DNA from: an uncultured Bacilli bacterium
Lineage (GTDB): Bacteria; Bacillota_I; Bacilli_A; RF39; UBA660
DNA length: 64,000 nucleotides
Reading direction: 5' to 3'
Assembly: GCA_944355355.1 (NCBI GenBank)
Contig: CALVQE010000001.1
Location: forward strand, 69,351-133,350
Shown here: positions 3,557 to 54,437 of the stretch, in pieces
How positions within the stretch are numbered: the stretch's first letter is position 1
How the letters are laid out: every line of letters starts with the position of its first letter
The notes under the pieces: generated by a model
The model's database searches: none
Told to the model about the DNA's origin: nothing
The model's input: the letters and a program-made list of their open reading frames with translations, nothing else
Translations under genes and position numbers: made by a program

Positions 3557-3574
3557 ATAACATCAATTCCTTTC

Positions 3575-3821
3575 CGAAATTATTTCCCGGGAAATAATTT
3601 AAATAAAAAAATCATGAATATAAGGACGAGTTAAAACCCGTGGTACCACCTTATTTCATGATTATCTCATGCACTCTTTCTCTAACGCAGAAATACGTTT
3701 CAACTCCAGAGCCATCTTCCATAGTAACCCTTTACTTATTTTCACCAATCATAAGCTCTCTAAAAAAGAATCATTATGTACTCTTTCCTTCACCATTGAA
3801 TACCCTAATTCTAACATAAAA
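3575..3821 (-). promoter_or_regulatory. T-box riboswitch leader (Met-specific by context) upstream of metG, with a terminator/antiterminator switch
   Basis: On the minus strand there is an F-box-like GCGTTA, then the T-box sequence AAGGTGGTACCACGGG (plus 3637-3652; consensus AGGGTGGTACCGCGG). It overlaps the 5' arm of a hairpin (CATGAAATAAGG ... CCTTATATTCATG, plus 3614-3660) followed by a U-tract (plus 3601-3612). The 266-nt 5' leader length is typical of T-boxes. Confidence 0.75.
3582..3595. promoter_or_regulatory. Noc-binding-site-type palindrome ATTTCCCGGGAAAT, within the 22-bp palindrome AATTATTTCCCGGGAAATAATT at 3578-3599
   Basis: Exact match to the B. subtilis NBS consensus. Located in the metG leader. 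Confidence 0.65.
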
Positions 3822-4343
3822 TTAAAGAATGTCAATTTTATTTACAATAATTTTAGTAAGAAAACGTGTAAAATCTATCATATAAGAAAGAAAAGGTTGC
3901 TCTTGATATAAAAGGATCAAACCCATAATATCCCCAGAAACATTAATAGGCTCAATATGAAAATAACCGCTCAAATTAAAATATTGTACAGGCTGATTAG
4001 TAGTATAACATTCGCGATTCATAATAAATTCCTCTAAAGAAGAAGGAATAGATAAACTTACTAAAGAAGAATCAAATGCCGTAATAACCTTCTCACGATC
4101 TGTAACAATTAGCTTTAACCCCATTACCTCAAAAGCTAAATTACAAAGAGGTTCTAAAGTATCTGTAATATTTAACAAATGAGAATACTTTTGAAGATAA
4201 ACCCCTTTATCTCTCACAAATATTTCTAAATCCTCCCCATCTTTAATACCTAAATTTTTTCGAATTTCTTTAGGCAAAACAATTCTTCCAAGTTCATCAA
4301 TTTTGCGAATAATTCCAGTCTCTTTCAAAGAAATACACTCCAT
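3822..4343 (-). CDS. spoVT: SpoVT/AbrB-family sporulation transcription regulator (AbrB-type N-terminal swapped hairpin plus GAF-like C-terminal domain)
   Basis: N-terminus GIIRKIDELGRIVLPKEIRKNLGIKDGEDLEIF matches SpoVT/AbrB. The 173-aa length and the position immediately downstream of mfd match the B. subtilis mfd-spoVT synteny. Confidence 0.75.
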   Translation of the reverse strand: MECISLKETGIIRKIDELGRIVLPKEIRKNLGIKDGEDLEIFVRDKGVYLQKYSHLLNITDTLEPLCNLAFEVMGLKLIVTDREKVITAFDSSLVSLSIPSSLEEFIMNRECYTTNQPVQYFNLSGYFHIEPINVSGDIMGLILLYQEQPFLSYMIDFTRFLTKIIVNKIDIL

Positions 4344-7300: not shown

Positions 7301-7590
7301 CATTTTTCTTGAACCTTTTCCAAAGTTTCCAAACGCTTTAACTTTAATTCAGGAGATACAGCCAATGCTACTGAAGTAAAAAAATCATCCATTGGAAACA
7401 AAAAAACTTGATCTGTATAAGTTTCCATTGCTTGATAAAGCTTATTAGCATCATACAAATTACTTGTCACTAAAAGCACAGAAGAATCATGACATTTAAA
7501 ATACTCCAACACGTAAAAAAGAGATAACTCACTCGTTAATCCTTCATTTATTGTTCCATTATCAAATCTAAACTCTTTAAACTTTTCCAT
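4375..7590 (-). CDS. mfd: transcription-repair coupling factor Mfd
   Basis: 1071 aa, DEEQRFGV (DEAH box) and TLSATPIPRTL helicase motifs, with pth upstream. Confidence 0.95.
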   Translation of the reverse strand: MEKFKEFRFDNGTINEGLTSELSLFYVLEYFKCHDSSVLLVTSNLYDANKLYQAMETYTDQVFLFPMDDFFTSVALAVSPELKLKRLETLEKVQEKCIVITNLMGYLRMLPQKSVQDSLKITLKKDLEISREDLVSTLENLGYQRDSMVTSTGEYAVRGFVLDVFLIDENHPIRIEFFGDTIESIRYFDEETQRTVSEVSSITCRPVDEVKTEGYSSLLQYMGDATVVYFDYPQIEASYAHLVEESLAYQKEQELDSQKFFLSFDEIHPSYILYVNHVVNDLKSKNVCRFQTNEIDNFKGNFTKLKEVVQGFIYQKKTVVFALSTSNQISEIRDLFEQNVVLVKDGQFHENAINIVHFKINKGFIWDNLVVISEFDIEEIKQEVKYKNNLHIGKKIRDLNALQTGDYVVHRAHGIGIYCGVVTLNVQGLKKDYLQIAYLGNDKVYVPVEKISSIYKYSDKDGMKPQINKLNSPVWQRKKQAVQKKIRDISGELIKLYAKRNSVVGEAYQDFPEEDLFANDFAYDETRDQIRAIKDVFHDLDSVVPMDRLLCGDVGFGKTEVAFRGMFKAVCNNKQVLYLCPTTILSKQQYESALERFRNFAVEIRLFNRFTTKKEAAEILEGLKSGKIDIVFGTHRLLSKEVQPKRLGLLVIDEEQRFGVTHKEKIKELKNDVNVLTLSATPIPRTLKMSLSGLRDLSIIDTPPINRYPIQTYVVSDSDMLVKDAIYKELARNGQVFVLYNRVETIEEKVSHLQKLVPEARIRFAHGRMTKTELDDIMSSFIAYDFDILVSTTIIETGIDIPNANTLIIYDADRFGLSQLYQLRGRVGRSNKIAYAYLLYHKNKMLNDIAVKRLQAIRDFTELGSGYKIAMRDLSIRGAGDILGSEQAGFVDTVGISLYMKMIEDEMKRLKGEYVPEDEDKESLIRVETHIDDDYVSDESVKIEIHQLINEIDSYQKLEDVKSMLIDRFGTITENMGIYMYEEWFEKLANRLNIVKVVQNNRIIQFWLSEEISAKIKGDKLFLEAYSINPKFQIKFENKQISILLPILYQEKHFIYDVVALVQKICDDLEV

Positions 7591-7599
7591 TAAAATCCC

Positions 7600-8151
7600 C
7601 TACTTACTATTATAACGATTCATAGTTTTTTCTATTCCATTCTCAATAAAAAAATAAATAATCTCTTGATAAAAAGAAAAATGTTGGATTAAGAATTCCA
7701 TTTCATCTTTAGAAAAGTTTCCTAAAACATAATGTATAGTATCCCCTTTTAAATCATGCGAAATTCCTATTTTCAATCGAGCAAAATGAGTTGTTCCCAG
7801 TGCATCTATAATAGATTTAATTCCATTATGTCCTCCTGAAGAACTATCTATCTTCAACTTATGACGTCCAAAAGCTAAATCCATATCATCCTGTATCACT
7901 AAAATATCATCAGGATCAATATCATAATAACGACTTATCTTTGCAACGGATAAACCACTTAAATTCATAAAAGTAGTAGGTTTAACAAAAATACATTTTT
8001 CTCCTTGAATAGATTCTATCCGAACATAAGCTTGAAATTTTTTTTCTAAAGTAAATTCCTTCACAAAAGAATCTAAAATCATAAAACCAACATTATGACG
8101 AGTCAAAACATATTCTTTTCCAATATTTCCTAAACCAACAATCATTTTCAT
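7600..8151 (-). CDS. pth: peptidyl-tRNA hydrolase
   Basis: MKMIVGLGNIGKEY...TRHNVGF signature. Confidence 0.95.
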   Translation of the reverse strand: MKMIVGLGNIGKEYVLTRHNVGFMILDSFVKEFTLEKKFQAYVRIESIQGEKCIFVKPTTFMNLSGLSVAKISRYYDIDPDDILVIQDDMDLAFGRHKLKIDSSSGGHNGIKSIIDALGTTHFARLKIGISHDLKGDTIHYVLGNFSKDEMEFLIQHFSFYQEIIYFFIENGIEKTMNRYNSK

Positions 8152-8161
8152 TACTAATCAC

Positions 8162-8884
8162 TTACTTTCTAAAAATACCTTGATAACTTTCTAAACTTCC
8201 AATGTTTACTGGCGGATAAACACGAGTTCCAAATCGTCCTCCCTTAACACAAGTAACTAAAACCATTACAGGCTTTTCATTCATCTTAGAGTAAACAAAT
8301 TGTAATTCCTTTATAGCTAAACCAAAACGGTTAGCATAAATAAATATTTCATCAATCCGATCAGGAACATGTACTAAGTAAAATCTTCCCTTATCTTTTA
8401 AGAAAAAACTTGTTACTTCAAAAATTTCTTTCAATGTTATACAAATTTCATGTCGTGCAATACTTTTGATAAGATTTTTATTGATATTACTTGATTCTGT
8501 ATACTTAAAATACGGTGGATTACATAAAATAACATCAAAATTATTTCCCGGGAAATAATTTTTTAGCTCTTTTACATTATCGTGAATAAGCGTAATCACC
8601 TCTTCCATTTGATTATAACGGACTGACTCTTTGGCCAACTGGTATATTTCTTCTTGATACTCTACTCCCACAACTGGCTTACTATATTTATTTTGAATCA
8701 AAATAGGTATAACTGCATTGCCAGTACAAAAATCAATAATTTGATTATCATCTTTTTTTATCTGCGCAAATTCAAACAATAAAATTGAATCTAAAGAAAA
8801 TTTAAAACCTTCCTCATACTGATACACTTTTAGATTAGGATAATCAAATAACCAATTAAGAGTCTTTTTCATCATTCCAAACAA
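8162..8884 (-). CDS. class I SAM-dependent methyltransferase, YabB/TrmN6-like (NPPY motif)
   Basis: DFCTGNAVIPILI SAM-binding motif and NPPYFKY. Positioned after ricT and holB as yabB is in B. subtilis. Contains one copy of the ATTTCCCGGGAAAT palindrome. Confidence 0.75.
   Translation of the reverse strand: MFGMMKKTLNWLFDYPNLKVYQYEEGFKFSLDSILLFEFAQIKKDDNQIIDFCTGNAVIPILIQNKYSKPVVGVEYQEEIYQLAKESVRYNQMEEVITLIHDNVKELKNYFPGNNFDVILCNPPYFKYTESSNINKNLIKSIARHEICITLKEIFEVTSFFLKDKGRFYLVHVPDRIDEIFIYANRFGLAIKELQFVYSKMNEKPVMVLVTCVKGGRFGTRVYPPVNIGSLESYQGIFRK
8543..8556. promoter_or_regulatory. Noc-binding-site-type palindrome ATTTCCCGGGAAAT, with an identical 22-bp context at 8539-8560
   Basis: Inside the methyltransferase CDS, where it encodes YFPGNNF. 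Confidence 0.65.
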
Positions 8885-11340: not shown

Positions 11341-11637
11341 TTACATTAATCCATCAAGCATACCAGCATATTGTCCCATTTTTGCTTGAAATTCCTTATC
11401 TATCTTAACTAAAGCATCTTTTTGAGCCAAAACAATAAAATCTTCTAACATCTCAATATCATCTTTATCTAAAGAATCTTTTTGAATAGAAATTTTAACC
11501 AATTCTTTTTTGCCATTCAAAGTTACTTCAACAAATTCATATTTCCCGGGAAATAATTGTGCATTAATTTCTTCTTTCTTTTTTTGCAAATCTCTTTGCA
11601 TTCTCTGTGCTTGAGCCATTATACTCTGCATATTCAT
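11341..11637 (-). CDS. ybaB: nucleoid-associated protein YbaB/EbfC
   Basis: 98 aa, conserved position between dnaX and recR. Contains one copy of the ATTTCCCGGGAAAT palindrome. Confidence 0.9.
   Translation of the reverse strand: MNMQSIMAQAQRMQRDLQKKKEEINAQLFPGKYEFVEVTLNGKKELVKISIQKDSLDKDDIEMLEDFIVLAQKDALVKIDKEFQAKMGQYAGMLDGLM
11541..11554. promoter_or_regulatory. Noc-binding-site-type palindrome ATTTCCCGGGAAAT, within a 19-mer shared with the other two copies at 11540-11558
   Basis: Inside the ybaB CDS, where it encodes LFPGKYEF in a different codon phase from the methyltransferase copy. Confidence 0.65.
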
Positions 11638-14026: not shown

Positions 14027-14157
14027 AATATACTCCCATAAAAAAAGTGCACACAAACAGGGAATGATGTGGCTGCTATCTTCCGATCCTGACCAGATTA
14101 CACTATATTTGTTGCACGAATACATAATATCAAATATTCAAGTAAAAATCAATCCAA

Positions 14158-14173
14158 TGTTTCACGTGAAACA
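14158..14173. promoter_or_regulatory. parS: parS site TGTTTCACGTGAAACA
   Basis: Perfect 16-bp palindrome. Matches the Firmicute parS consensus TGTTNCACGTGAAACA 16/16. Confidence 0.9.
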
Positions 14174-14277
14174 TCTTATCAACATTTAAGATATTTGCCT
14201 ATGATTATATAAATTTTGATAAATTTAATTAATTTGTAAAACTAATTCCTATTTTAAATGATTAATACAAGAATATA

Positions 14278-14293
14278 TGTTTCACGTGAAACA
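14278..14293. promoter_or_regulatory. parS: parS site TGTTTCACGTGAAACA
   Basis: Perfect match to the parS consensus. Confidence 0.9.
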
Positions 14294-14597
14294 TTGTTAT
14301 TCACACAATAATAAAATAATTTAATCAAAATGTAACAAAAATTATTCATTAAAAGATATTCGTAATAAATTAAGAGATTACAAATAAGGATATTTGATCT
14401 TTATACGATCAAAAAAGTAAAGTTTAATAAAAAACTTTAATACATGCAAAAAAAATTACTATCATTTTGCTTAAATTATTGAATTTCTTATAAATAATTT
14501 GAAAATTGAAATTAATAAAAAAAATACAATTAACTATTTTTACATTCATATATTAAAATCAAGAATAAATTTAGTTATATAATTTTAATTATTATCA

Positions 14598-14613
14598 ATG
14601 TTTCACGTGAAAC
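14598..14613. promoter_or_regulatory. parS: parS site TGTTTCACGTGAAACA
   Basis: Perfect match to the parS consensus. Confidence 0.9.
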
Positions 14614-14719
14614 ATCTTATCAACATTTAGGATATTTAACTATAAATATACAAATTTTAATAATAATTAATAAATTATCCATAAATATTCTATATTTTAA
14701 ATGATTAATACAAAATATA

Positions 14720-14735
14720 TGTTCCACGTGAAACA
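14720..14735. promoter_or_regulatory. parS: parS site TGTTCCACGTGAAACA
   Basis: Identical to the B. subtilis parS consensus. Confidence 0.9.
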
Positions 14736-14881
14736 TTGTTATAAACATAGGCAATTAACTAATTATTAAACTGATTTTTTAATCACACTAAAAATATTAC
14801 TTAAAATAAATAATTATTGTATTAAATTATAAAAAATTGATATAAGTAAAAAGTATACTATTTATTTGCATTATTAATAAA

Positions 14882-14897
14882 TGTTTCACGTGAAACA
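14882..14897. promoter_or_regulatory. parS: parS site TGTTTCACGTGAAACA
   Basis: Perfect match to the parS consensus. Confidence 0.9.
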
Positions 14898-15002
14898 TCT
14901 TATCAACATTTAAGATATATGCCCATAATTATATAAATTTTGATAAAATTTAATAAATTTGTAAAATTAATTTCTATTTTGAACGATAAATACAAGGATG
15001 TA

Positions 15003-15018
15003 TGTTTCACGTGAAACA
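15003..15018. promoter_or_regulatory. parS: parS site TGTTTCACGTGAAACA
   Basis: Perfect match to the parS consensus. Confidence 0.9.
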
Positions 15019-15305
15019 TTGTTATTCACACAATAATAAAATAATTTAATCAAAATGTAACAAAAATTATTCATTAAAAGATATTTGTAATAAATTAAGA
15101 GATTACAAATATAGATATTTGAGCTTTATATAAAAAAACTTTAATACATGCAAAAAAGATTACTATTATTTATTTTGCTTAAATTATTGAATTTCTTATA
15201 AATAATTTGAAAATTGAAATTAATAAAAAGATACAATTAACTATATTTATTTTCATAAATTAAAATCAAGAATAAATTTAGTTATATAATTTTAAATATT
15301 ATCAA

Positions 15306-15321
15306 TGTTTCACGTGAAACA
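15306..15321. promoter_or_regulatory. parS: parS site TGTTTCACGTGAAACA
   Basis: Perfect match to the parS consensus. Confidence 0.9.
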
Positions 15322-15426
15322 TCTTATCAACATTTAGGATATTTAACTATAAATATACAAATTTTAATAATAATTAATAAATTATCCATAAATATTCTAT
15401 ATTTTAAATGATTAATACAAAATATA

Positions 15427-15442
15427 TGTTCCACGTGAAACA
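15427..15442. promoter_or_regulatory. parS: parS site TGTTCCACGTGAAACA
   Basis: Identical to the B. subtilis parS consensus. Confidence 0.9.
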
Positions 15443-15588
15443 TTGTTATAAACATAGGCAATTAACTAATTATTAAACTGATTTTTTAATCACACTAAAA
15501 ATATTACTTAAAATAAATAATTATTGTATTAAATTATAAAAAATTGATATAAGTAAAAAGTATACTATTTATTTGCATTATTAATTAA

Positions 15589-15604
15589 TGTTTCACGTGA
15601 AACA
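15589..15604. promoter_or_regulatory. parS: parS site TGTTTCACGTGAAACA
   Basis: Perfect match to the parS consensus. Confidence 0.9.
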
Positions 15605-15710
15605 TCTTATCAACATTTAAGATATTTACCTTAAATATACAAATTTTAATAATAATTAATAAATTATCCATAAATTATTTTATATTTTAAATAATTAATA
15701 CAAAAATATA

Positions 15711-15726
15711 TGTTCCACGTGAAACA
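15711..15726. promoter_or_regulatory. parS: parS site TGTTCCACGTGAAACA
   Basis: Identical to the B. subtilis parS consensus. Confidence 0.9.
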
Positions 15727-15819
15727 TTGTTATGCACATATAGGCATTTAACTAATTATTAAGTTATAATTTTATTTAAGATATTCATTTAAAAACAGTA
15801 CCAAAGTTAAATTTACGAA

Positions 15820-15835
15820 TGTTTCACGTGAAACA
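15820..15835. promoter_or_regulatory. parS: parS site TGTTTCACGTGAAACA embedded in a 26-bp perfect palindrome ACGAATGTTTCACGTGAAACATTCGT, 20 bp downstream of the gyrA stop
   Basis: Perfect match to the parS consensus. The extended palindrome spans 15815-15840. Confidence 0.9.
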
Positions 15836-15854
15836 TTCGTATAAAAAAAGAAGA

Positions 15855-18308
15855 TTACTCATCTTCCTTTTTTATACTAGCTTCATCTTCAGAAATATTA
15901 CTTTCCTCATGACCTACGATACTTATAGTAGATACAGTTTGATCATCTTTTAAATGAATAAGTCTAACACCTTGAGTGGCTCTTCCAAGAGTAGAAATTT
16001 GTTGTAAAGGCAAACGAATTAACATTCCTGTATCTGTAATAACTACAACATCTGAATTATCTTCAACAAGTTTAAATGCAGCAATAGTACCGTTTTTATC
16101 AGTAATATTCAACGCTTTAACACCCTTACTACCTCTACTAGTTTGTCTATAGTCACGAACATTTGTTTGCTTTCCATAACCTTTCTTAGTTACAATTAAG
16201 ATTTTATCATCATCTGTGGCAATTTCAGCCCCAATACATTCTTGATTATCCAAATTAATTCCACGAACTCCACTAGCAGTTCTTCCCATAACTCGAACAG
16301 CATCTTCATTAAATTTTACCATTCTTCCAGCATTAGAACCTAATAAAATCATATCATTTCCTGTTGTTTTTCGTACGCCAATAAGCTCATCTGAATCACG
16401 AAGTGAAATACATATCTTACCATTCGTTCTAATATTGTCAAATTCTTCTATTGCAGTTTTCTTTACTATTCCTTTGCGCGTAGCAAACAATAAATATTTT
16501 GCCGGATCATCTTTTGTAATCTTAATCATCGAATTAATCGATTCATCTTTATCGATTTGTAATAAGTTGATAACAGGTATTCCCTTAGATTGACGATTAA
16601 ATTCAGGCACTTCATAACCTTTCAAACGATAAACTTTACCCTTATTTGTAAAGAATAAAACATAATCATGCGTAGATAAAGTAAGTAAATGTTCCACAAA
16701 ATCTTCTTCATTGGTTCCCATACCTTTAACACCTACTCCACCACGATTTTGAGATTTAAATGTATCAACAGTTGTCCGTTTAATATATCCCTTGTTCGTA
16801 AGTGCAATCATAATGTTTTCTTCTGGAATTAATGACTCATCTTCGATATACTCAATAGCTGTCATATCAATATTAGTACGACGTTCATCAGCATATTTTT
16901 CCTTAATTTCCAATAATTCCTGTTTAATAATATCCAATACCAATTTCTCACTAGCTAAAATAGCTTTATATTCTTCAATTTTCTTCAATAATTCCGCCAA
17001 TTCAGCCTCAATTTTATCTTTCTCTAAGCCCGTTAAACGACGTAATCTCATTTCAAGAATTGCATCACTTTGAATTTCAGAAAGTCCAAATCGACTCATC
17101 AAAGCTTCTTTTGCTTCAACATCAGTTCTACTACCACGAATAATTTTTATTACCTCGTCAATATGATCTAAAGCAATCTTTAATCCCTCTAAAATATGAA
17201 CACGATCTTCAGCTTTCTTTAAATCATATTGTGTTCTTCGAACAATAACTTCTTTTTGGAAATCAATATATTTACTAATAATATCTTTTAAACCAAGTGT
17301 TTTAGGAACTCCTTGATCAATCATTAGCAAAATGATACCATATGAAATTTGAAAAGAAGTATGCTTATACAAATTATTCAATACAACTTGAGGATTAGCA
17401 TCCCTTTTTAAAGTAATTGTAATTTTAATACCATCTTTTAAATCAGAATGATAATCAGAAATACCATCAATCACTTTATTGTGAACAAGTTCAGCCACTT
17501 TATTTTTTAATTCCAAAGTATTAACACCATATGGAACCTCATCAAATATAATTTGATAACGACCATTCTTTTCTTCAATGCTTGCTTTACTTCGAATCGT
17601 AATTGTTCCACGACCTGTTTCATAAGCTTTCTTAATACCACTATTCCCTAAAATAGTTGCTCCCGTCGGAAAATCAGGACCTTTGATATACTGCATTAAT
17701 CCAAGTGTATCAATATCTGGATTATCAATATATGCAACACAGCCATCAATAACTTCACCCAAATTATGAGGAGGAATATTTGTTGCCATACCAACAGCAA
17801 TACCCATAGTTCCATTAACTAAAATATTAGGAAAACGACTAGGCAAAACCTCAGGTTCTTTCTCAGATTCATCAAAATTTGGAATCATATTAACAGTATC
17901 TTTGCCAATATCTCTTAATAGTTCACCGGAAATCTTAGCTAGTCTAGCCTCAGTATAACGCATTGCTGCCGCGCCATCACCATCCATATTACCAAAATTT
18001 CCATGACCATCAATCAAAGGACAACGATAACTAAAATCTTGAGCCATACGAACTAACGCTTCGTAAATAGAAGAGTCACCATGTGGGTGAAATTTTCCCA
18101 TAACATCACCAACAATACGAGCGCATTTTTTATGTTGCTTATCAGAAGTATAACCAGATTGATACATAGAAAATAAAATACGACGATGAACAGGTTTTAA
18201 ACCGTCTCGTAAATCTGGTAAAGCACGAGAAGTAATAACACTTACAGAATAATCAACAAAAGATTTACTAACCTCATTAACAATATTGTTTTGTTCAAGC
18301 TTATCCAT
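15855..18308 (-). CDS. gyrA: DNA gyrase subunit A
   Basis: 817 aa, active-site Tyr region [15 protein letters not shown]-like segment, C-terminal beta-pinwheel repeats. Confidence 0.97.
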
Positions 18309-21407: not shown

Positions 21408-21875
21408 TTAACGCCTGTTAAAATGTTTTTTTTGTACTTTTCGTCCTCTTAAAGCACTTTCTAACCGTGTAGCTCTTAACAGTTGATTATCAAAAATACC
21501 AAAAGTGACATTTAACAATATTTTTCGCCCATTTAAGAATTCCAAAACTACATTTTTACCTTCTTTATAGTACTTATTCACATACTTCAAGCTAATCCAA
21601 GGAGTATCATGATATCGTGCAGAAGAAAGAGGAAAAAAAATCAATCCAAAAGTTTCTTCTACAATAATAGGCGCTTTATAATTAACCCCTATCATCACCT
21701 CAGTACCTTTACGCCTTCCCTCTAAACTACTTCCAAAATATTGACAACTATTTTCCATAATTTGAGTAGCATTCATATCCAAAATAAACTCTTCTTCATA
21801 CTCTAATACCTTAACTTTTTCTTTAGACAAAGGAATCAAAGCCATTGTTTCATTATTAATTTCATAATTTTTCAT
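21408..21875 (-). CDS. comK: ComK-family competence transcription factor
   Basis: YEINNETMALIP, SCQYFGSSLEGRRKGT, KAPIIVEETFGLIFFPLSS, WISLKYV and FDNQLLRATRL align with B. subtilis and S. aureus ComK blocks. Start at MKNYEI, preceded by a GGAGGGGG RBS. Occupies the slot where yaaA sits in B. subtilis. Confidence 0.75.
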   Translation of the reverse strand: MKNYEINNETMALIPLSKEKVKVLEYEEEFILDMNATQIMENSCQYFGSSLEGRRKGTEVMIGVNYKAPIIVEETFGLIFFPLSSARYHDTPWISLKYVNKYYKEGKNVVLEFLNGRKILLNVTFGIFDNQLLRATRLESALRGRKVQKKHFNRR

Positions 21876-22021
21876 AATTTTTCCCCCTCCAAAAATGAAA
21901 ATTATCTCTAGAATAACACACAAAAAGAGAAAAAAATGTCGAAAAAAGAATTGTTCTAAAAATTAAGTTTAATTAAAAAATTTATAGCATTTATTAAAAT
22001 AAAAAACTGTCACTTGACAGC

Positions 22022-23140: not shown

Positions 23141-23295
23141 AAAGCATCCTTCCCTCTTTCTTATTTTATTTAATATATATTCATAATAATAATGATGTGG
23201 ATAATGTGAATAACTTTTGGAATAACTATAAATACTAGCTTCATAGCCCATTTTTTATGTGCATAGTTATTCACATTGATATTTTTTTATCCACA
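23141..23295. promoter_or_regulatory. oriC part 2 (dnaA-dnaN intergenic, incC-like): DnaA boxes plus an AT-rich unwinding element
   Basis: TGTGGATAA and TTATCCACA are perfect DnaA boxes; TGTGAATAA and TTATTCACA are 1-mismatch boxes. The AT-run ttattttatttaatatatattcataataataat at 23161-23195 is a candidate DUE. Confidence 0.8.
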
Positions 23296-24681
23296 TTACA
23301 TCTTATTTTGAATTTCTTTAATTTGATTTTCTAAGGTTTTATTCACCTTCAGCTCCTCTACAATTTTATCACAAGCGTGAATAACTGTCGAGTGATCCCT
23401 ACCTCCAAATTCTAAACCAATTCGGTTTAAATTTTCTTCAGTTAAAATACGTGACAAATACATAGCTATTTGTCGTGGATAAGCTATATCAGCACTACGT
23501 CTTTTTCCCTTTAAATCCTCTACTCGAATATGAAAATAATCTGCTACAGCTTTTTGAATAGATTCAATACTGTCTGTTTTATAAATGTTTCTATTTACAA
23601 AATCAGCTAAAGCTTCAATAGCAAAATTTAAATCAATTTTAGGCGGAACAACCATTGCAGTATAAGCCATCAAACGATTTAACGCTCCTTCCAAAAAGCG
23701 AACGTCATTTTGACAACTATTAGCGATGTATTCAATAACGTTTTCATCTATTTTAGTCGAAATAGACATGTTCTTAAGTTTTGCACGAATAATCTCACAT
23801 CTAAGTTCGAAATCAGGTGGATAAATGTCTACAGGAAGCCCCCACATAAACCGACTTCGAAGTCTTTCTTCTAACAATTTTAGATCATCTGGACTTCGAT
23901 CAGAACTAATAATGATTTGTTTATTAGCTTGATGAAGTGTATTAAAAGTATGGAAAAATTCTTGTTGAGTCTTCTCTGCTCCAACTAAATATTGAATATC
24001 ATCGATAATCAGCACATCCACTTCACGATATTTACGTTTAAAATTTGCCATGACTTGCACATTATTTCCTTTATTCTCAGAATTAGAAATATTGATATAG
24101 TCATCTTTAAACATTTCACTTGTCGTATAGAGTACTTTTTTCTTAGAATGACTAACAATATAATTACCTATTGCGTGCATTAAATGGGTTTTACCTAACC
24201 CACTCTTTCCATAGATAAACAAAGGGTTATGCACTTTACCAGGTTGTTCAGCTACAATCATTCCAGCAATTTTAGCCAGTCGATTCGAATCCCCAACAAT
24301 ATAATTATCAAAATTCAATTCAGGACGAAGATTTGTTTCCCATTTTTCATCAACTTGAGAAACTTCAATCTTCTCTTCAACAAAGTTATCCACATTATCC
24401 ACAATTGGGTCAAACTTTAGAAGTTCATCCCCTATTTCTTCTTTTAGTAAAAATTCAAATTCATAATTGTGATTCGTTACTTTATAAAAAGCGTCATCGA
24501 TCAAATTATAATAATTTGTAGTTAAAATACGCTTATGAATTTCCATCGGTACTTGAATATATACCTTATTATCTTGAATTTTAATTAGTTTTAAATCATG
24601 AAACCAGGCATGAAATGAAGCTGAATTTACTTCAGGATATATTTCATCCAACACAGATTGCCAAAGATCTTTTTGCTCCAT
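23296..24681 (-). CDS. dnaA: chromosomal replication initiator DnaA
   Basis: 461 aa, AAA+ GKSGLGKTHL, C-terminal DNA-binding domain with the DnaA signature IGLEFGGRDHSTVIHA. Confidence 0.97.
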   Translation of the reverse strand: MEQKDLWQSVLDEIYPEVNSASFHAWFHDLKLIKIQDNKVYIQVPMEIHKRILTTNYYNLIDDAFYKVTNHNYEFEFLLKEEIGDELLKFDPIVDNVDNFVEEKIEVSQVDEKWETNLRPELNFDNYIVGDSNRLAKIAGMIVAEQPGKVHNPLFIYGKSGLGKTHLMHAIGNYIVSHSKKKVLYTTSEMFKDDYINISNSENKGNNVQVMANFKRKYREVDVLIIDDIQYLVGAEKTQQEFFHTFNTLHQANKQIIISSDRSPDDLKLLEERLRSRFMWGLPVDIYPPDFELRCEIIRAKLKNMSISTKIDENVIEYIANSCQNDVRFLEGALNRLMAYTAMVVPPKIDLNFAIEALADFVNRNIYKTDSIESIQKAVADYFHIRVEDLKGKRRSADIAYPRQIAMYLSRILTEENLNRIGLEFGGRDHSTVIHACDKIVEELKVNKTLENQIKEIQNKM

Positions 24682-25131
24682 TTCACCACCCCGCTCGCTT
24701 TATAACCAATATTCTACACTTTTTTTGCTCCATTTAAAAGAACAAAATTTATCCTAACATACTATTCACAAGTTATCAACAAAATTAATGCCGTATTTAA
24801 AAGAAAAAAAGCAGTTATCCACATTATCAACATTTTCAATTTTTAATAAATGTGATTAAGTTGAAAGGGTGTAAAAACTTATCCACAATAATGTGAATAT
24901 GTGCAAAAAATAAAAAAACACCCGTTAAATTCAATATAAAATTAACTAATACATTGTGAATAGTTATCAACAATTAAAAAAAAATGCACAGAAATATATA
25001 TAATAGCCCTAAAAGTTATGCACATATAAATGCAGTTTTAATGTTAGGTTAGTGGAAAAATCAATAAAGGATTGACTTTTCAAGCTATTTAATATTATAA
25101 TAAGGGAGCTTTTAACGAAGGAGGGAAATAT
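24682..25131. promoter_or_regulatory. oriC part 1 (upstream of dnaA): DnaA-box cluster and the divergent dnaA and rpmH promoters
   Basis: At least 7 DnaA-box 9-mers. Perfect TTATCCACA at about 24815 and 24879; 1-mismatch TTATCAACA (three copies) and TTATGCACA. The replication strand switch occurs here. Confidence 0.8.
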
Positions 25132-27288: not shown

Positions 27289-28914
27289 ATGAAATTAATA
27301 GATTATATGATTTCTTTACCAAAGGGCATAATATATGAAAAATATGTTCGATTATTTGAAAAGTCTACAAATTATCAAAAAATTACTAGAAAGAAAATGC
27401 TTGAAGAAATCGTATCTTTTTATAACGAAGGGAACAAGTTACAAGAATTGTGCTTATCTAAAGAGATAGTAGTTTTGAAAAAAATTAAAACAAAAAAAAT
27501 AGATAAAAAGCGTTTATCCGAAAAATATTTTGAAGAAGTTTTGTCTTTAAAAGAAAAATTACTTTTGATAACAGACTCAAATGGAAAACTATGTATACCA
27601 GAAGATATAATAGAAAATGTTTTGAATAACTTAAAACATATTAACGTTCAAAAGCTAGAAGAAAATGAAACACTAAATATCTTAATTAAAAATATCCTTT
27701 TTTATTATAAAATCTTACCTGAAAATGATTTATTAAAAATAATAAAAAAATATGTTAACTTAAATGAAGAATCTTTAAAGAACTTTTTATTGAATAATAA
27801 ATTCATTCATTTTTACATTGAAAAAGCAAAATATAAAAAGAAAGTTTTTTGGATTTATCGTGATGAAGAAATACCTCTAAGTGACTTTATTTGGATGTAC
27901 TTTCACTCAGAAGTCAAAGAATATAAAAATATTACTATAGAAGAACTATATAAGTATGCTCAAAATCCATTATCTAAATTGAATGAAGAAAAATTTGTTC
28001 AATTAATAAATGACCTGAATCAATATAATCTACCAGTAAACTATATTATTAGCGTCATCTTAACGAACGCAATATATGCTAGTGATGACGGAAAAATAGA
28101 TAAATTACTTAATATTTACAGTAAAACAATCTCAACAGAAAAACTGTCAGATATAAAAAATCACATAATAGATATGATCTTGCAATTACCTTCCGTTATG
28201 TTAAAAGGATACTCAATAAACGAGTATCAAGAAATAAAAACAAAAAAAACATTTGATGAAAGATTTCAAAAAACAATGGACAATCTTGAAAATCCAGATG
28301 TAGTGGAAGACTATTTAGAACTAAGAGAAGAATTAGATCGAATAAATTGTGATTGTGTAGAGTTTTTCGTTATGAATGAACCAAAAAAGTTTGAACGTTA
28401 TCAAAAAATGTGTCAAAAATATGGGTTAATTCATTCTAAAATTCCTGGAAATGTCATGGATAATTTTGTTTTATATCATGCATTAGAGGAGGATGAAGAA
28501 TCGCCTTTTGCAAATTATGTAAATCATCATCTAAATATCTTAGGCAAAGACTATTCAATTGCATGGCAAGTCTTAGAAAATACAGAAGTATCAATATTTC
28601 GGATCAAAAAATTAATTCCATCTCAAGCGATAGTAGAGTTAGAAGATATAAAAACAAAGAAACCGTATGTAATATACGATATTTCTCTTTCAGCAAGTGA
28701 TCCAGAAATTGTCAATTCCTACCTATACACCAAACTTATAAAAATAAATAATATCACTTTTGCAAGTGGCTGCGCCTTCTTATTTTATAAAAATCTACAT
28801 CCTGATTTGTTAACAGAAATAGAAAAGAAAAAAGAGGAAATAAAAGATATTTCGAACGACCAAACTAAGTTTTTTCTTGCATGTTTTTTAATAAATACAA
28901 AGGATTTTGACTGA
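27289..28914 (+). CDS. hypothetical 541-aa Lys-rich soluble protein with no recognisable domain, inserted between jag and mnmE
   Basis: Long ORF with consistent codon usage, an own RBS (aaggaaagaagaggaa), and a terminator downstream. Family not recognised by eye. Confidence 0.6.
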   Translation: MKLIDYMISLPKGIIYEKYVRLFEKSTNYQKITRKKMLEEIVSFYNEGNKLQELCLSKEIVVLKKIKTKKIDKKRLSEKYFEEVLSLKEKLLLITDSNGKLCIPEDIIENVLNNLKHINVQKLEENETLNILIKNILFYYKILPENDLLKIIKKYVNLNEESLKNFLLNNKFIHFYIEKAKYKKKVFWIYRDEEIPLSDFIWMYFHSEVKEYKNITIEELYKYAQNPLSKLNEEKFVQLINDLNQYNLPVNYIISVILTNAIYASDDGKIDKLLNIYSKTISTEKLSDIKNHIIDMILQLPSVMLKGYSINEYQEIKTKKTFDERFQKTMDNLENPDVVEDYLELREELDRINCDCVEFFVMNEPKKFERYQKMCQKYGLIHSKIPGNVMDNFVLYHALEEDEESPFANYVNHHLNILGKDYSIAWQVLENTEVSIFRIKKLIPSQAIVELEDIKTKKPYVIYDISLSASDPEIVNSYLYTKLIKINNITFASGCAFLFYKNLHPDLLTEIEKKKEEIKDISNDQTKFFLACFLINTKDFD

Positions 28915-33091: not shown

Positions 33092-34306
33092 GTGAATACA
33101 GAACAAAAGGTAATACAAGTACCGATTGAAGATATTATTCCCAATCGTTTTCAACCACGTCTGGCTTTTGATGAAGAAGGATTAAAAGAATTATCTGAAT
33201 CAATTAAACAACATGGCATTATTCAACCATTAGTTTTAAGAAGACTAGGGGATAAATACGAAATTATTGCCGGCGAAAGAAGATACAAAGCTGCAACAAT
33301 GGCAGGGTTAAGAACAGTTCCAGCTATTGTTTCTGATATCGATGATAATAAAAGTGCCGAAATTGCTTTAGTAGAAAACATTCAAAGAAGAAATCTTACA
33401 CCAATTGAAGAAGCAAAATCTTATAAAAATCTTTTAGACCGAGGCTATATGACACAAGAGCAACTAGCTGAGAAAATGGGTGTGAGTCAAAGTTCTATTG
33501 CTAATAAATTAAGATTATTAAATTTAGCACCTGAAGTCCAAGATGCTCTTTTACAAGAAAAAATCAGTGAAAGACATGCAAGAAGTTTACTATCTTTACC
33601 AAAAGAAGAACAAGCTGAATGGTTACAAAAGATAATAACAAAACGTTTAACCGTTCGTCAATTAGACTTAGAAATAAAAAAAGCGAAAGGAGAACAGGGG
33701 GAAGAAATTCCATTAGTTTCTTCTCAACCAGATTTAAATACTATGATAAATAACGCAACAGACATTAATCCAACAGAAGTTCAAGAAAAAACACCAATAA
33801 AAGAACCTGTAGTAGAAGAAAAAAATATGCCAAATAAGTTTTTTAACTTTTTGGAAGATGAAGCAGCAAATATGAACATGACAATAAATTCAAATCTTAA
33901 TACACCAATTGAAGATACCCAACCAGAAGATACAAATATTGAAGTGTTAGATGATTTTAGTCTCGAAGAACCAGCAAAAGAGGAAACTAAAACTCAAGAA
34001 GAGGATACAATCATGCCGTTCTTCTTTGGAGCTAATACATCCGAAAATAAAGAACAAAATACAATAGAAGAAATTAAAAATACACCTCAAGAAATAATTG
34101 TTGATCCTATGGATTCAGTGATGAAATTAGATCCAAACTACAATAAAAAAGTAGAAGAAGCTCAAGGATTAGATTTAAAAACCGCTATAAATGAAGTTCG
34201 CGATTTAGTCGAACAACTAAAGGCTCGGGGCTTCCAAATTAACTTAGATGAACTTGATCTTTCGGGCAATTACCAAATGACAATAAGCATTAAAAATGAT
34301 GACTAG
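33092..34306 (+). CDS. noc: ParB/Noc-family protein with Noc-type DNA-recognition residues and a long acidic C-terminal extension; likely nucleoid occlusion protein Noc rather than Spo0J
   Basis: GTG start with an AAGGGG RBS. The ParB N-terminal box is IPNRFQPR, which is Noc-like (Spo0J has PNPYQPR). The HTH reads GVSQSSIANKLRLLNLAPEVQDALLQEKISERHAR, giving Gln, Lys and Arg at the positions that discriminate NBS from parS, versus R...G in Spo0J. It sits directly after rsmG, where B. subtilis has noc. It is 404 aa, against about 283 for a typical Noc. Confidence 0.6.
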   Translation: MNTEQKVIQVPIEDIIPNRFQPRLAFDEEGLKELSESIKQHGIIQPLVLRRLGDKYEIIAGERRYKAATMAGLRTVPAIVSDIDDNKSAEIALVENIQRRNLTPIEEAKSYKNLLDRGYMTQEQLAEKMGVSQSSIANKLRLLNLAPEVQDALLQEKISERHARSLLSLPKEEQAEWLQKIITKRLTVRQLDLEIKKAKGEQGEEIPLVSSQPDLNTMINNATDINPTEVQEKTPIKEPVVEEKNMPNKFFNFLEDEAANMNMTINSNLNTPIEDTQPEDTNIEVLDDFSLEEPAKEETKTQEEDTIMPFFFGANTSENKEQNTIEEIKNTPQEIIVDPMDSVMKLDPNYNKKVEEAQGLDLKTAINEVRDLVEQLKARGFQINLDELDLSGNYQMTISIKNDD

Positions 34307-41931: not shown

Positions 41932-42438
41932 ATGAAAAAAATAATACCTATTCTCTTTGTCCTGTTTCTTATCTATGGTTTTGTAAATAAAGAAGAAATT
42001 TTAATACCGGACTATGCTATTCGCTTTCGCGTAATTGCTAATTCGAATACTTTAGAAGATCAAACTGAAAAAATGGAAATAAAAGAAGCAGTTGAAAAAG
42101 AATTAAATTCCTTAGTAAGCCAAGCAAAATCAAGCAAAGAAGCCGAAAATATTATTGAAAATAATTTAGAAAATATAAAAGAAATAATTAATCAATATAC
42201 AACAGATTATCAAATAAATTTTGGCTTAAATTACTTTCCCGAGAAAGAATATAAAGGTGTAAGGTATCCTAGTGGTGATTACGAATCCTTAGTAATTACT
42301 TTGGGAAGCGGAAACGGAGAAAATTGGTGGTGTGTCATGTTTCCTCCCTTGTGCCTACTAGAAGCAAAAGAACGGAACACAGAAGACATTCATTATACCT
42401 TCTATGTGAAAGAAGTTTTAGAAAAATACACAGGTTAG
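41932..42438 (+). CDS. spoIIR: stage II sporulation protein R (SpoIIGA-activating signal protein)
   Basis: Signal peptide. IPDYAIRFRVIANSNTLEDQ and NWWCVMFPPLC match the SpoIIR hallmarks (B. subtilis IPDQAIRLRILANSDSDQDQ and NWWCVLFPPLC). Confidence 0.85.
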   Translation: MKKIIPILFVLFLIYGFVNKEEILIPDYAIRFRVIANSNTLEDQTEKMEIKEAVEKELNSLVSQAKSSKEAENIIENNLENIKEIINQYTTDYQINFGLNYFPEKEYKGVRYPSGDYESLVITLGSGNGENWWCVMFPPLCLLEAKERNTEDIHYTFYVKEVLEKYTG

Positions 42439-52205: not shown

Positions 52206-52275
52206 AAAAGGTATTTATTTTTTATGTGGTTTTATGGTATAATTGCTAATAGTAAACCTGTTAGGAGAGATAAGT

Positions 52276-52989
52276 ATGCAAGTAATAGTTGTAGAAGATG
52301 AGTTAAAAGATCAAAAGAGTATAAAAGAAATTATTAGAGAATTCTCTTTTGAAAATAATTGTGATATTGAAATAAAATATTTCAAAAAATACGATGAGAG
52401 TTTACAAAATGAAATTAACAATTGCTCTTATCGTAAAGTCTATATTATGGATATTGAATTAGAACATAGTATAAGTGGAATAGAAATAGCTAAGAAAATT
52501 AGAGAAAAAGACTGGGATAGTGAAATCATTTTTGTGACAACACATGATAAAATGTTTGAAAGTGTACATCGAAGTATTCTGGAAGTTTTTGATTTTATAG
52601 AAAAGTTTCAAAACTTTGACGAAAGGTTGAAGAAAGATTTGAAAATTATTTATGAAAAGAAATTTGATAAGAAACTTCTAAAATTAACAGGTAGAAACGT
52701 TAATGTAGAAATATATATGAAGAACATACTTTATATCACCAGAGATAAAGAAGATAGAAAAGTAGTCATTCACACTGAAAATGAAGTAGAGTTTAAAATA
52801 GGTATGACTTTAACAGAAATATTAAACATGTTAGATAATCGTTTTGTTCAAACACATAAAAGTTGTATTGTGAATAAAGAGAAAGTAGTAAAATTGAATT
52901 ACAGTCAAGGTTATTTTGTATTAGAAACAGGTGAGAAGGTAGATATGTTATCAAAGAAATATAGAAAAGGAATTGAAGATCAAAAATGA
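52276..52989 (+). CDS. agrA: LytTR-family response regulator (AgrA/ComE-like)
   Basis: Receiver domain with the phospho-acceptor Asp in IMDIEL. C-terminal LytTR domain (FVQTHKSCIVN). Confidence 0.85.
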   Translation: MQVIVVEDELKDQKSIKEIIREFSFENNCDIEIKYFKKYDESLQNEINNCSYRKVYIMDIELEHSISGIEIAKKIREKDWDSEIIFVTTHDKMFESVHRSILEVFDFIEKFQNFDERLKKDLKIIYEKKFDKKLLKLTGRNVNVEIYMKNILYITRDKEDRKVVIHTENEVEFKIGMTLTEILNMLDNRFVQTHKSCIVNKEKVVKLNYSQGYFVLETGEKVDMLSKKYRKGIEDQK

Positions 52990-54254
52990 TTGAATTTTTA
53001 TTAATTTTCATAGCTTCCCTTATTTCACAAATAGTAACTATCTTTGCATATGGTAAAATCAATAAGAAAAAGCTTTGTTTAAAAGAATTGGATTTTGTAC
53101 TTATAATAAGTATGAGTTTGTTTCAAGCCTTACAAAATATATATGAATTTTTTATAGGTAAACTAATTAGTCCCCTGATTTCTATTATTTATTTTATTTA
53201 TGTTTTTCAAAGAATGTATAAAAGTGATAGAAAAACAGCAGTAAGTTACAGCATAATTATTTGGACGATCAGCGTAATAATTGATTTAATAAGTATGTTA
53301 ATAATAAGTAATACTGTCACATTAAATGAGCAAAATCGTAATATATTAAAATTTTTTAGTTCGTTATTTATGAGCTTAATTCAATTAATAATTTTTATAC
53401 TTCCTATAAGTCAAAAATACATTAAAAAAATTAATCAAAAAATAGTTCAGGGTAACATTGATTTTAAACATATTAGTGTAGTAATAGTAATTTATCTAAT
53501 TATCGGTGTTTTTTCGGTAAGTAATATAGACAATGCTTATTTAATATCTGTAGTAGTTGTAATTGGCCTCATTTCATTAATTATTATTTATAATTTTGTT
53601 TCAATGAACTATCAAATTGTAATGTTAAAGAAAACTAATGACATTTTAGAAAAAAATAACGAGGGAAATTTGGAACTTTTAAAGGAATACAGAGTTTTGA
53701 AACATAATTTAGAACATAACTTGATGGGAATTAAAAGTGTAGCAAATAAAAAGTCTCAACAACTAATTGACGCTTTAATAAAAGAATATAATAGCAAATT
53801 TTATATTAAACAAGATATGACAAGTATGCCGGGAGGAATAAATGGTTTTATATTAGAAAAGTTCTATAAGTATGCCGAAGAAGATTTGAAGATCACAGTA
53901 GAAAATAAAATCAAGAAAAAGATCTTAGGCTTACTTGGACCAAGAAACTATAATTTGTTTTGTGAAGCTTTAGGAGTGACATTAGACAATGCTTTGGAAT
54001 CAGCAGTAAAAAGCAAAGAGAAACTTTTATATTTAGAGTTTAAAGAAACCAAAGAAAGTTTAATGGTAACGGTAACAAATACCTTCACAGGTAATATTGA
54101 AATAGATAAATTAGGCACAAAAGAATATACTTCAAAAGAAACAGGCCATGGATTAGGCTTATATTCTTTATTTAATCGTAAAAACCTTTATATTACTACA
54201 GCTATCAAAAATAATCTTTTTATAAATAAAATAGAAGTAAAAAAGAAGCATTAA
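52986..54254 (+). CDS. agrC: AgrC/ComD-type (HPK10) membrane histidine kinase
   Basis: Six to seven N-terminal TM helices. C-terminal HATPase with GHGLGLYS. ATGA overlap with the response regulator gene. Confidence 0.8.
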   Translation: MIEFLLIFIASLISQIVTIFAYGKINKKKLCLKELDFVLIISMSLFQALQNIYEFFIGKLISPLISIIYFIYVFQRMYKSDRKTAVSYSIIIWTISVIIDLISMLIISNTVTLNEQNRNILKFFSSLFMSLIQLIIFILPISQKYIKKINQKIVQGNIDFKHISVVIVIYLIIGVFSVSNIDNAYLISVVVVIGLISLIIIYNFVSMNYQIVMLKKTNDILEKNNEGNLELLKEYRVLKHNLEHNLMGIKSVANKKSQQLIDALIKEYNSKFYIKQDMTSMPGGINGFILEKFYKYAEEDLKITVENKIKKKILGLLGPRNYNLFCEALGVTLDNALESAVKSKEKLLYLEFKETKESLMVTVTNTFTGNIEIDKLGTKEYTSKETGHGLGLYSLFNRKNLYITTAIKNNLFINKIEVKKKH

Positions 54255-54280
54255 AAAATTGAGTTAAATAGCTCAATTTT

Positions 54281-54394
54281 TTACATGATTTCCAAATCAG
54301 CTTCAGGTTCATCCCAAAAATACCAAACACAAGCAGACGAAACAGATTTTGCAAAAATATTTGCAATTCCAGCTAAAATATCGGCTAGAAACAT
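54281..54394 (-). CDS. agrD: AgrD autoinducing-peptide precursor (37 aa, MFLADILAGIANIFAKSVSSACVWYFWDEPEADLEIM)
   Basis: Hand translation. Amphipathic N-terminal leader, a conserved Cys followed by 4-5 hydrophobic residues, then the acidic DEPE recognition tail typical of AgrD. Lies 44 nt downstream of agrB on the same strand. Confidence 0.75.
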   Translation of the reverse strand: MFLADILAGIANIFAKSVSSACVWYFWDEPEADLEIM

Positions 54395-54437
54395 TTTCTT
54401 TCACATCCTTTCTTCTTGTTTAAATCTATATAAATAT

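Follow-up and report, generated by a model that had tools for sequence, protein, structure and literature searches.

Plasmid centromeres such as sopC of F, which comprises 12 direct repeats of 43 bp with a 16-bp inverted repeat in each, iterate a partition-protein site in non-coding DNA, and boxes for the initiator DnaA can form a cluster outside the replication origin oriC, as in datA of E. coli. Here we analyse a 1.7-kb non-coding array of parS, the palindrome bound by the partition protein ParB, that lies between gyrA and tadA close to oriC in an uncultured Bacilli bacterium. The array occupies positions 14158-15835 of a stretch of 64,000 nucleotides (contig CALVQE010000001.1, assembly GCA_944355355.1; hereafter the window), and all but one of its parS sites are accompanied by a 9-mer of DnaA-box type. 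From the arrangement of these sequences we consider it probable, if far from certain, that the spacer is a centromere-like ParB loading region built as a tandem array of composite parS and DnaA-box modules.

Bacterial chromosomes as a rule have their parS sites close together, B. subtilis with its scattered sites being the exception, and clustering is a means of avoiding SMC collisions (PMC8357415); an earlier sequence-only reading of this DNA had taken scattered sites as the baseline, which has to be reversed. The number of parS sites per chromosome ranges from 1 to about 23, and the reason for their multiplicity and clustering is an open question (PMC7333895). In gut Firmicutes, clusters with several sites per 5 kb lie where the secondary diagonal of Hi-C maps crosses (PMC10197239), and in vitro the condensation force of ParB with cytidine triphosphate (CTP) rises with the number of clustered parS, such that 7, 13 and 26 sites condense DNA while 1-4 sites do not (PMC8299390). 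Origin-proximal clusters have been described in M. xanthus (22 sites near ori; PMC3899335), P. aeruginosa (parS1-4; PMC4368675) and C. glutamicum (PMC7083940). The present locus resembles these in its 16-bp consensus, in multiple sites near oriC and in a presumed role in ParB loading and SMC recruitment. By contrast, it differs from them in the 1.7-kb tandem array with a higher-order repeat, in rapid turnover of copy number, in a DnaA-type box for each paired site and in having no parAB operon nearby.

With sopC, which is mentioned in PMC3597684, the locus shares non-coding tandem direct repeats carrying a palindromic site of the ParB family, but it is chromosomal, with dnaA-dnaN-recF-gyrB-gyrA on one side and scr-tadA-dnaX on the other, its units are long and irregular (283 and 424-441 bp), its site is the chromosomal parS consensus, and no par operon adjoins it. 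Blastn found no similarity of the array to plasmid or phage records, and an origin from a plasmid or phage was rejected on this ground and on the core chromosomal context. The likeness to plasmid centromeres proposed from the sequence alone therefore holds for tandem repeats that each bear a partition-protein site, but not for their setting, which has neither a plasmid or prophage context nor a par operon nearby.

Centromeres and initiation have also been linked. DnaA-box clusters of B. subtilis act with Spo0J/Soj to hold back initiation (PMC3245932), boxes within the parS region of Caulobacter are bound by DnaA according to a review's summary of that work (Mera 2014, reviewed in PMC6399470), the rctA/parS2 locus of V. 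cholerae is bound by both ParB2 and the initiator RctB (PMC6399470), and ParB and DnaA have been reported to interact directly (PMC13438810). The likeness to the B. subtilis clusters (PMC3245932) and to E. coli datA lies in intergenic boxes near oriC, a proposed sequestration of DnaA and the link to Spo0J/Soj; by contrast, the boxes here stand 100-300 bp apart, each abuts a parS site, most have A at position 6, and DnaA binding is predicted. As in Caulobacter and V. cholerae, a centromere locus with (here predicted) initiator sites is seen, but those loci have one or few sites whereas the module with its fixed 2-3 bp gap is iterated ten times here and conserved over a clade of Bacilli.

Sites and layout of the parS array

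An exact search of the window with TGTTNCACGTGAAACA returned 11 matches between 14158 and 15835, compared with none in 100 dinucleotide-preserving shuffles, which confirms the eleven perfect sites reported earlier. Eight of them are of a T type (TGTTTCACGTGAAACA) and three of a C type (TGTTCCACGTGAAACA), correcting a previous count of seven and four, and the consensus N is the sole position that varies. Ten sites form five pairs with the expected spacing of 120-122 bp centre-to-centre, and the eleventh is a lone site beside gyrA. The order is A-B-A'-B'-B'' plus the lone site, with A-type units of 424-441 bp and B-type units of 283 bp; A-B occurs twice, forming a 707-725-bp higher-order repeat whose copies are 94-96% identical, and A-type and B-type units are about 70% identical with parS intact in both. 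The sequence-only reading had this order and a higher-order repeat of about 715 bp right, but its units of about 350 bp were not borne out. The sites, the boxes described in the next section and the repeats are as follows (coordinates, strand, feature).

14158-14173, no strand: parS S1 (TGTTTCACGTGAAACA), exact match, first of pair A
14176-14184, plus: DnaA-box-type TTATCAACA, 2 nt after S1
14278-14293, no strand: parS S2 (T type), exact match, second of pair A
14297-14305, plus: consensus DnaA box TTATTCACA, 3 nt after S2
14599-14614, no strand: parS S3 (T type), exact match, first of pair B
14617-14625, plus: DnaA-box-type TTATCAACA after S3
14720-14735, plus: parS S4 (TGTTCCACGTGAAACA), exact match, second of pair B
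14739-14747, plus: degenerate DnaA-box-type TTATAAACA after S4
14882-14897, no strand: parS S5 (T type), exact match, first of pair A'
14900-14908, plus: DnaA-box-type TTATCAACA after S5
15003-15018, no strand: parS S6 (T type), exact match, second of pair A'
15022-15030, plus: consensus DnaA box TTATTCACA after S6
15306-15321, no strand: parS S7 (T type), exact match, first of pair B'
15324-15332, plus: DnaA-box-type TTATCAACA after S7
15427-15442, plus: parS S8 (C type), exact match, second of pair B'
15446-15454, plus: degenerate DnaA-box-type TTATAAACA after S8
15589-15604, no strand: parS S9 (T type), exact match, first of pair B''
15607-15615, plus: DnaA-box-type TTATCAACA after S9
15711-15726, plus: parS S10 (C type), exact match, second of pair B''
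15730-15738, plus: consensus DnaA box TTATGCACA after S10
15820-15835, no strand: parS S11, exact match, lone and without an adjacent DnaA box
14130-14853, plus: higher-order repeat copy 1 (A, 441 bp, and B, 283 bp)
14854-15560, plus: higher-order repeat copy 2 (A', 424 bp, and B', 283 bp), 94-96% identical to copy 1
15561-15800, plus: extra B-type unit B''

The site density amounts to about one parS per 150 bp in a single non-coding array. Its G+C content is 16.3% (83.7% A+T), or 13.6% with the parS sites excluded, and no open reading frame exceeds 44 aa or is credible, in line with the AT block of about 85% described before. No Rfam family lies inside it, a scan at permissive threshold returning only the signal recognition particle (SRP) RNA. 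Tandem Repeats Finder reported no repeats in the array because its periods are longer than 500 bp and its units have diverged, and a general repeat search was used instead. There is no further parS at up to 2 mismatches in the window, nor at up to 3 mismatches in the 10 kb past each edge, which were obtained via identical proteins on a 144.7-kb metagenome scaffold. Window and flanks together make up the roughly 84 kb referred to below, and over this length the earlier supposition that the 11 might be essentially the only sites holds. These results support the sites as genuine, non-random copies of the parS consensus in a dedicated non-coding, origin-proximal array.

Two structural proposals of the sequence-only reading were not retained. 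Placement of paired sites on opposite helical faces is contradicted by the spacings of relatives (40, 44, 63, 64, 125 and 158/174 bp), which show no conserved phase, and the intrinsic curvature expected from AT content was not matched by any AA/TT helical periodicity above shuffles. S11 lies in the middle of a perfect 28-bp palindrome (TACGAATGTTTCACGTGAAACATTCGTA, 15814-15841) immediately beyond the gyrA terminator, and this palindrome scores as terminator-like on the minus strand.

DnaA-box-type sequences and the array in relatives

The earlier observation was real and its interpretation stands only in part; the DnaA-box-type 9-mers that adjoin the paired sites had been missed. Each of the ten paired parS has such a 9-mer 2-3 nt away on its oriC-proximal side: the first site of every pair is followed by tc-TTATCAACA (five copies), and the second by ttg-TTATTCACA (two copies), ttg-TTATAAACA (two) or ttg-TTATGCACA (one). 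Against the consensus TTATNCACA, three of these boxes are perfect and seven have one mismatch. The array contains 15 matches to TTATNCACA at up to one mismatch, compared with 5.3 +/- 2.4 expected, and 10 of 11 parS have such a box within 20 nt, while 400 composition-matched permuted motifs gave a mean of 0.68 and a maximum of 8. Nine copies of TTATCAACA occur in the 64 kb, five in the array, three in oriC upstream of dnaA (24773, 24824 and 24964, one of which directly abuts a TTATCCACA) and one elsewhere; this concentration in array and oriC indicates that it behaves as an oriC-type DnaA-box variant of this organism. Across the five pair units, variable columns number 1/32 in parS, the one being the consensus N, and 2/18 in the boxes, compared with 58/134 among the other columns (Fisher p = 3e-6 for parS; p = 0.009 for the boxes). 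These counts show purifying selection on parS and box columns within the array.

The pairing extends beyond this species. In six species of the genus-level group a box lies 2-6 nt from 31 of 36 parS, with TTAT invariant and the consensus N taking all four bases, and in the sister species the first-site box is a perfect TTATACACA. A metagenome scan for parS-box pairing yielded mostly single matches compatible with chance, and only loci with multiple pairs were used; most of the loci with at least three pairs that show flanking genes are low-GC contigs carrying homologues of this clade's gyrA/tadA. Several distant clade members have a perfect TTATCCACA 0-3 nt from parS, in the gyrA-tadA(-dnaX) region wherever flanks are visible. 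Outside the clade no box enrichment beside parS was found (358 parS at 104 loci). A fixed orientation with the box always on the oriC-proximal side holds in the genus and fails in distant clade members, and that claim was dropped.

Copy number differs among conspecific assemblies and among related species. Contigs with identical GyrA from independent metagenome assemblies share the array, and all 11 sites recur in one scaffold with 99.95% identity to the window; other conspecific assemblies have 10, 7 or 6 sites in complete gyrA-tadA spacers, and many short-read contigs end within the array. Closer relatives identified via GyrA homologues (95-79% identity) have 7, 3-4, 8, 2, 1 and at least 13 sites, the nearest named organism being Candidatus Ventrenecus stercoripullorum (GyrA 88%). 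The largest number belongs to locus L147 (GyrA 79%; loci fetched for comparison carry L numbers), where a tandem repeat of 40 bp at 7485-8117, broken by a scaffold gap, holds at least 13 perfect parS, packed more densely than in the window; 11 is therefore high but not the maximum.

We scanned a single genome from each species for pairs of perfect parS separated by 111-141 bp and obtained at least 120 loci in many phyla. Clusters of 4-9 perfect parS within 1-2 kb are common among the matches listed, again in many phyla, so that the uniqueness claimed for the array from the sequence alone was overstated. Sixteen loci among the matches listed are syntenic with the window and come from metagenome-assembled genomes (MAGs) labelled uncultured Bacilli, Bacillales, Tenericutes or Mycoplasma (GyrA 61-91% identical); each has 2-9 perfect parS in the gyrA-(scr)-tadA-dnaX region. 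Their flanks and repeat periods are species-specific (44, 63, 64, 125 and 158/174 bp), and the 16-mer alone is shared, varying only at N. Comparison of the tadA-gyrA interval among relatives, proposed earlier, thus revealed 1-13+ perfect parS in the gyrA-tadA-dnaX region of at least 25 related uncultured Bacilli species, in unrelated repeats of 40-441 bp that are particular to each species. Perfect parS pairs immediately downstream of gyrA also occur in several MAGs from Treponema and other spirochaetes (L032, L040, L045, L057, L060, L087, L097).

The Noc-type protein and the gene neighbourhood

Binding of the array by ParB had been assumed in the sequence-only reading, but no ParA or ParB gene is found within the roughly 84 kb, and the one ParB-family gene of the window is of Noc type.

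33092-34306, plus: only ParB-family gene in the window; Noc-type, 404 aa, directly after rsmG; specificity residues Q-K-N-R

ParB has R173/G201 and Noc has Q173/K179/K184/R201; R173 is invariable in parS binders, one Lys at 179 or 184 is enough for binding of the Noc-binding site (NBS), and deep mutational scanning found Q173/R201 proteins to be NBS-specific (PMC7383237). The Q-K-N-R combination is present in 119 of 119 orthologues with readable positions (120 retrieved) and has no entry in the published variant data (PMC7383237 supplement). Among NCBIfam models the protein scores best with that for Noc, at 285 bits across the N-terminal 198 of 255 positions, which does not reach the cut-off of 315 bits. 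The protein is predicted to bind NBS, not parS. The ParB genes beside parS clusters in other fetched loci (more than 40) are all of the R..G (or R..S/T) type, validating the specificity-residue rule on natural data.

Compared with the Noc-NBS nucleoid occlusion system (PMC7383237, PMC8429893), the likeness lies in a Noc-type paralogue right after rsmG as in B. subtilis, in three perfect NBS and in NBS inside the arrays of relatives. By contrast, the window's array is without NBS, and the protein has no N-terminal amphipathic membrane-targeting helix and carries an acidic low-complexity insertion or C-terminal extension of about 200 aa. FF motifs in this insertion (KFFNFLEDE, MPFFFGAN) resemble the N-terminal RFFGLG of Noc. 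The three perfect NBS (ATTTCCCGGGAAAT) lie at 3582-3595, 8543-8556 and 11541-11554, all in the left arm; the expectation for the window at up to 2 mismatches is 0.28 matches. The NBS inside ybaB is kept at the same place in six related species (L139-L147).

Sites in the clade are either pure parS or pure NBS, barring one parS copy with a single end-base change, and no hybrid half-sites were seen there, as expected for two specific proteins. In L012, which comes from a closed 1.52-Mb chromosome, each 125-bp repeat at 2264-2903 has one parS and one NBS, as does each 64-bp repeat of L080 at 3560-4048; these are putative interleaved loading sites for two different ParB-family clamps. NBS also lie inside the arrays of L143 and L190, and box-parS-NBS combinations occur in L143, L190, L229 and L233. 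Triple modules, with DnaA box, parS and NBS within about 40 bp, are seen in L143 (7476-8958), L190 (2564-2990) and L233 (2566-3430). In an unrelated Eubacteriales MAG (L111, 556-2796), a Noc-type gene (Q-K-R-R) precedes a non-coding stretch of about 1.9 kb that holds five perfect parS, and no ParB is seen in this 8-kb locus.

On the minus strand the gene order is dnaA (23296-24681), dnaN, a ComK-like gene, recF, gyrB, gyrA (15855-18308), the array, SRP RNA, tadA, dnaX, ybaB and recR. The elements that bound the array, and oriC, are as follows.

14041-14121, minus: SRP RNA gene between array and tadA (Rfam Bacteria_small_SRP, 52.4 bits)
14124-14152, minus: promoter-like sequence of the SRP RNA gene (TTGATT-17-TATTAT, -10 extended by TG), bounding the array on the left
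15841-15877, minus: hairpin of the intrinsic terminator of gyrA (-19.2 kcal/mol, z = -6) with a U-run after it, bounding the array on the right
23196-25024, no strand: oriC, from DnaA-box clusters on either side of dnaA (23196-23295 and 24773-25024) and the GC-skew sign change

The non-coding spacer between tadA and gyrA is therefore as stated from the sequence alone, except that the SRP RNA gene intervenes between array and tadA. From the array end it is about 7.4 kb to the dnaA-dnaN box cluster and about 9 kb to the one upstream of dnaA, consistent with the earlier estimate of about 8 kb from dnaA. With a terminator on its right and a promoter-like site on its left, it is a transcription-free spacer 7.4-9 kb from oriC. 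The hallmarks of oriC, a tight box cluster beside dnaA and the switch in skew (sign flip near 25 kb), are at 23.2-25.0 kb and not in the array. S1 stops 5 nt short of the -35 box of the putative SRP RNA promoter, on its upstream side (14124-14173), and ParB occupancy could therefore affect SRP RNA expression.

Several other features of the neighbourhood were observed. The dnaA coding sequence holds two tandem perfect DnaA boxes (TTATCCACA TTATCCACA, 24386-24403), and the ComK-family gene (21408-21923, minus strand) has the same placement between dnaN and recF in every relative fetched. A 541-aa protein (27289-28914, plus strand; a Pfam match to DUF7986, no NCBIfam match) forms an insertion within the conserved jag-mnmE segment of the origin operon and is missing from the same position in a relative of 69% identity (L138). 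The lineage has sporulation genes (SpoIIR, BofA) and an agr-like quorum-sensing locus (AgrB, histidine kinase, LytTR regulator) at 41932-42438 and 52243-55070 of the window, and a type VII secretion cluster (EssC-like, WXG100) lies just past the left window edge (L135, 10744-20654).

Competing explanations and a proposed mechanism

In the composite centromere that we favor, a canonical ParB encoded outside the window would bind each palindrome, close as a CTP clamp and slide off. Eleven loaders in 1.7 kb would multiply the loading flux, and the outcome would be one dense partition complex serving as a single-point SMC loading site, a proposal that fits both the in vitro scaling of condensation with parS number and the collision-avoidance arguments for clusters. 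DnaA would occupy the abutting boxes, the array thereby doubling as an oriC-proximal DnaA-box cluster. Given a parS-box gap of 2-3 bp, ParB and DnaA would have to touch or exclude each other, and such contact or exclusion may link segregation of the origin to the control of initiation in cis, in a lineage that has no Soj/ParA close to its origin. Copy number may be tuned by unequal recombination among the repeats.

A number of observations weigh against this interpretation. A canonical ParB of the R173/G201 type was not found by tblastn in the window or among gene calls in the 10 kb past either edge, so that we infer the parS-binding protein rather than see it; likewise, ParA/Soj was not found by tblastn in the window (with a B. 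subtilis Soj query) or among gene calls in the flanks. The Noc-type gene has the same context in a 69%-identical relative, again with no parAB. The gene for the parS-binding ParB probably lies elsewhere in the genome of about 1.5 Mb, and ParB systems that lack ParA exist (PMC7333895). As to the boxes, seven of ten depart from TTATNCACA at position 6 (TTATCAACA, TTATAAACA), and at distances of at least 100 bp from one another they cannot give rise to a DnaA oligomer. Box-free arrays occur in many clade members (L012, L051, L080, L147), indicating that boxes are not required for array function, and distant members do not preserve the orientation of the box relative to gyrA, a position on the opposite side of parS being possible. 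Differences in copy number among short-read assemblies may partly be repeat collapse.

The off-consensus position 6 and the wholly box-free arrays of many relatives would be explained if the array were purely a ParB centromere that loads ParB and SMC, with the adjacent TTATNCACA-like 9-mers being a flank preference of ParB or hitch-hikers of the repeat that DnaA does not bind; counts within the array are, moreover, inflated because its copies share ancestry. We nevertheless regard this as unlikely, because the pairing persists where other flanks have diverged, with TTAT invariant and N free, because perfect TTATCCACA stands beside parS in distant members and TTATCAACA is otherwise concentrated in oriC, and because the 358 parS outside the clade show no box enrichment. 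It seems quite improbable that one or two parS suffice and that the rest of the copies, together with the higher-order repeat, arose neutrally by slippage or unequal recombination, as in a minisatellite. Copy numbers of 6-11 among conspecific assemblies and 1-13+ among species, and the sufficiency of a single parS in P. aeruginosa (PMC4368675), agree with such neutrality, but the 16-mer is perfect in every copy while flanking columns are 43% diverged, the sites are intact in A and B units that are only about 70% identical, and multiple sites are kept in nearly all species.

That the lineage lacks a canonical ParB, its palindromes being read by a dual-specificity Noc-type paralogue or an unrelated factor, is suggested by the sole ParB-family gene in about 84 kb being Noc-type in a context conserved in relatives, and by the 1:1 interleaving of NBS and parS in the repeats of L012 and L080. 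By contrast, R173 is invariable in parS binders and Q173/R201 is NBS-specific (PMC7383237), the more than 40 ParB genes beside parS clusters are all R..G type, site classes are pure with no hybrid half-sites, and the genome has been seen only in small fraction; we thus consider this very improbable. Exceedingly improbable is a role of the array within the replication origin itself, where it would aid unwinding as an auxiliary cluster of DnaA boxes: ten DnaA-type boxes in an 84% AT region about 8 kb from dnaA would be in keeping with it, but these are isolated at 100-300 bp, the skew flip at about 25 kb and the dense consensus boxes flanking dnaA make up a typical Firmicute oriC, and many relatives' arrays have no boxes.

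A bolder form of the composite centromere may be entertained, tentatively and with considerable doubt. The spacer could be an evolvable modular landing pad for up to three proteins (DnaA box, parS and, in some species, NBS) that would couple ParB clamp loading, DnaA availability and a helix-less Noc-type clamp in cis and replace Soj-mediated control; in its extreme version there would be no canonical ParB, and the Noc-type paralogue or another factor would read parS.

Dense parS clusters are already known and widespread across bacteria, and what is new here is the composite centromere and DnaA-box array; the literature searched yielded no account of comparable tandem parS arrays occurring naturally on chromosomes. 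Most interesting is that sites for different origin-region proteins are placed side by side in an iterated and conserved manner. Two warnings follow for genome analysis: a ParB-family gene beside rsmG may be of Noc type, and short-read assemblies are broken at the origin by parS arrays. Why several parS are clustered and how segregation talks to replication initiation are open questions in the field (PMC7333895, PMC6399470), and the array represents a natural, sequence-defined experiment on both, with one homologous locus varying from 1 to 13+ copies across related species. The fixed gap of 2-3 bp between parS and DnaA box (or Noc site in relatives) predicts direct contact or competition between ParB and DnaA, and although the organisms are uncultured, such predictions lend themselves to in vitro tests that use synthetic DNA and recombinant proteins.

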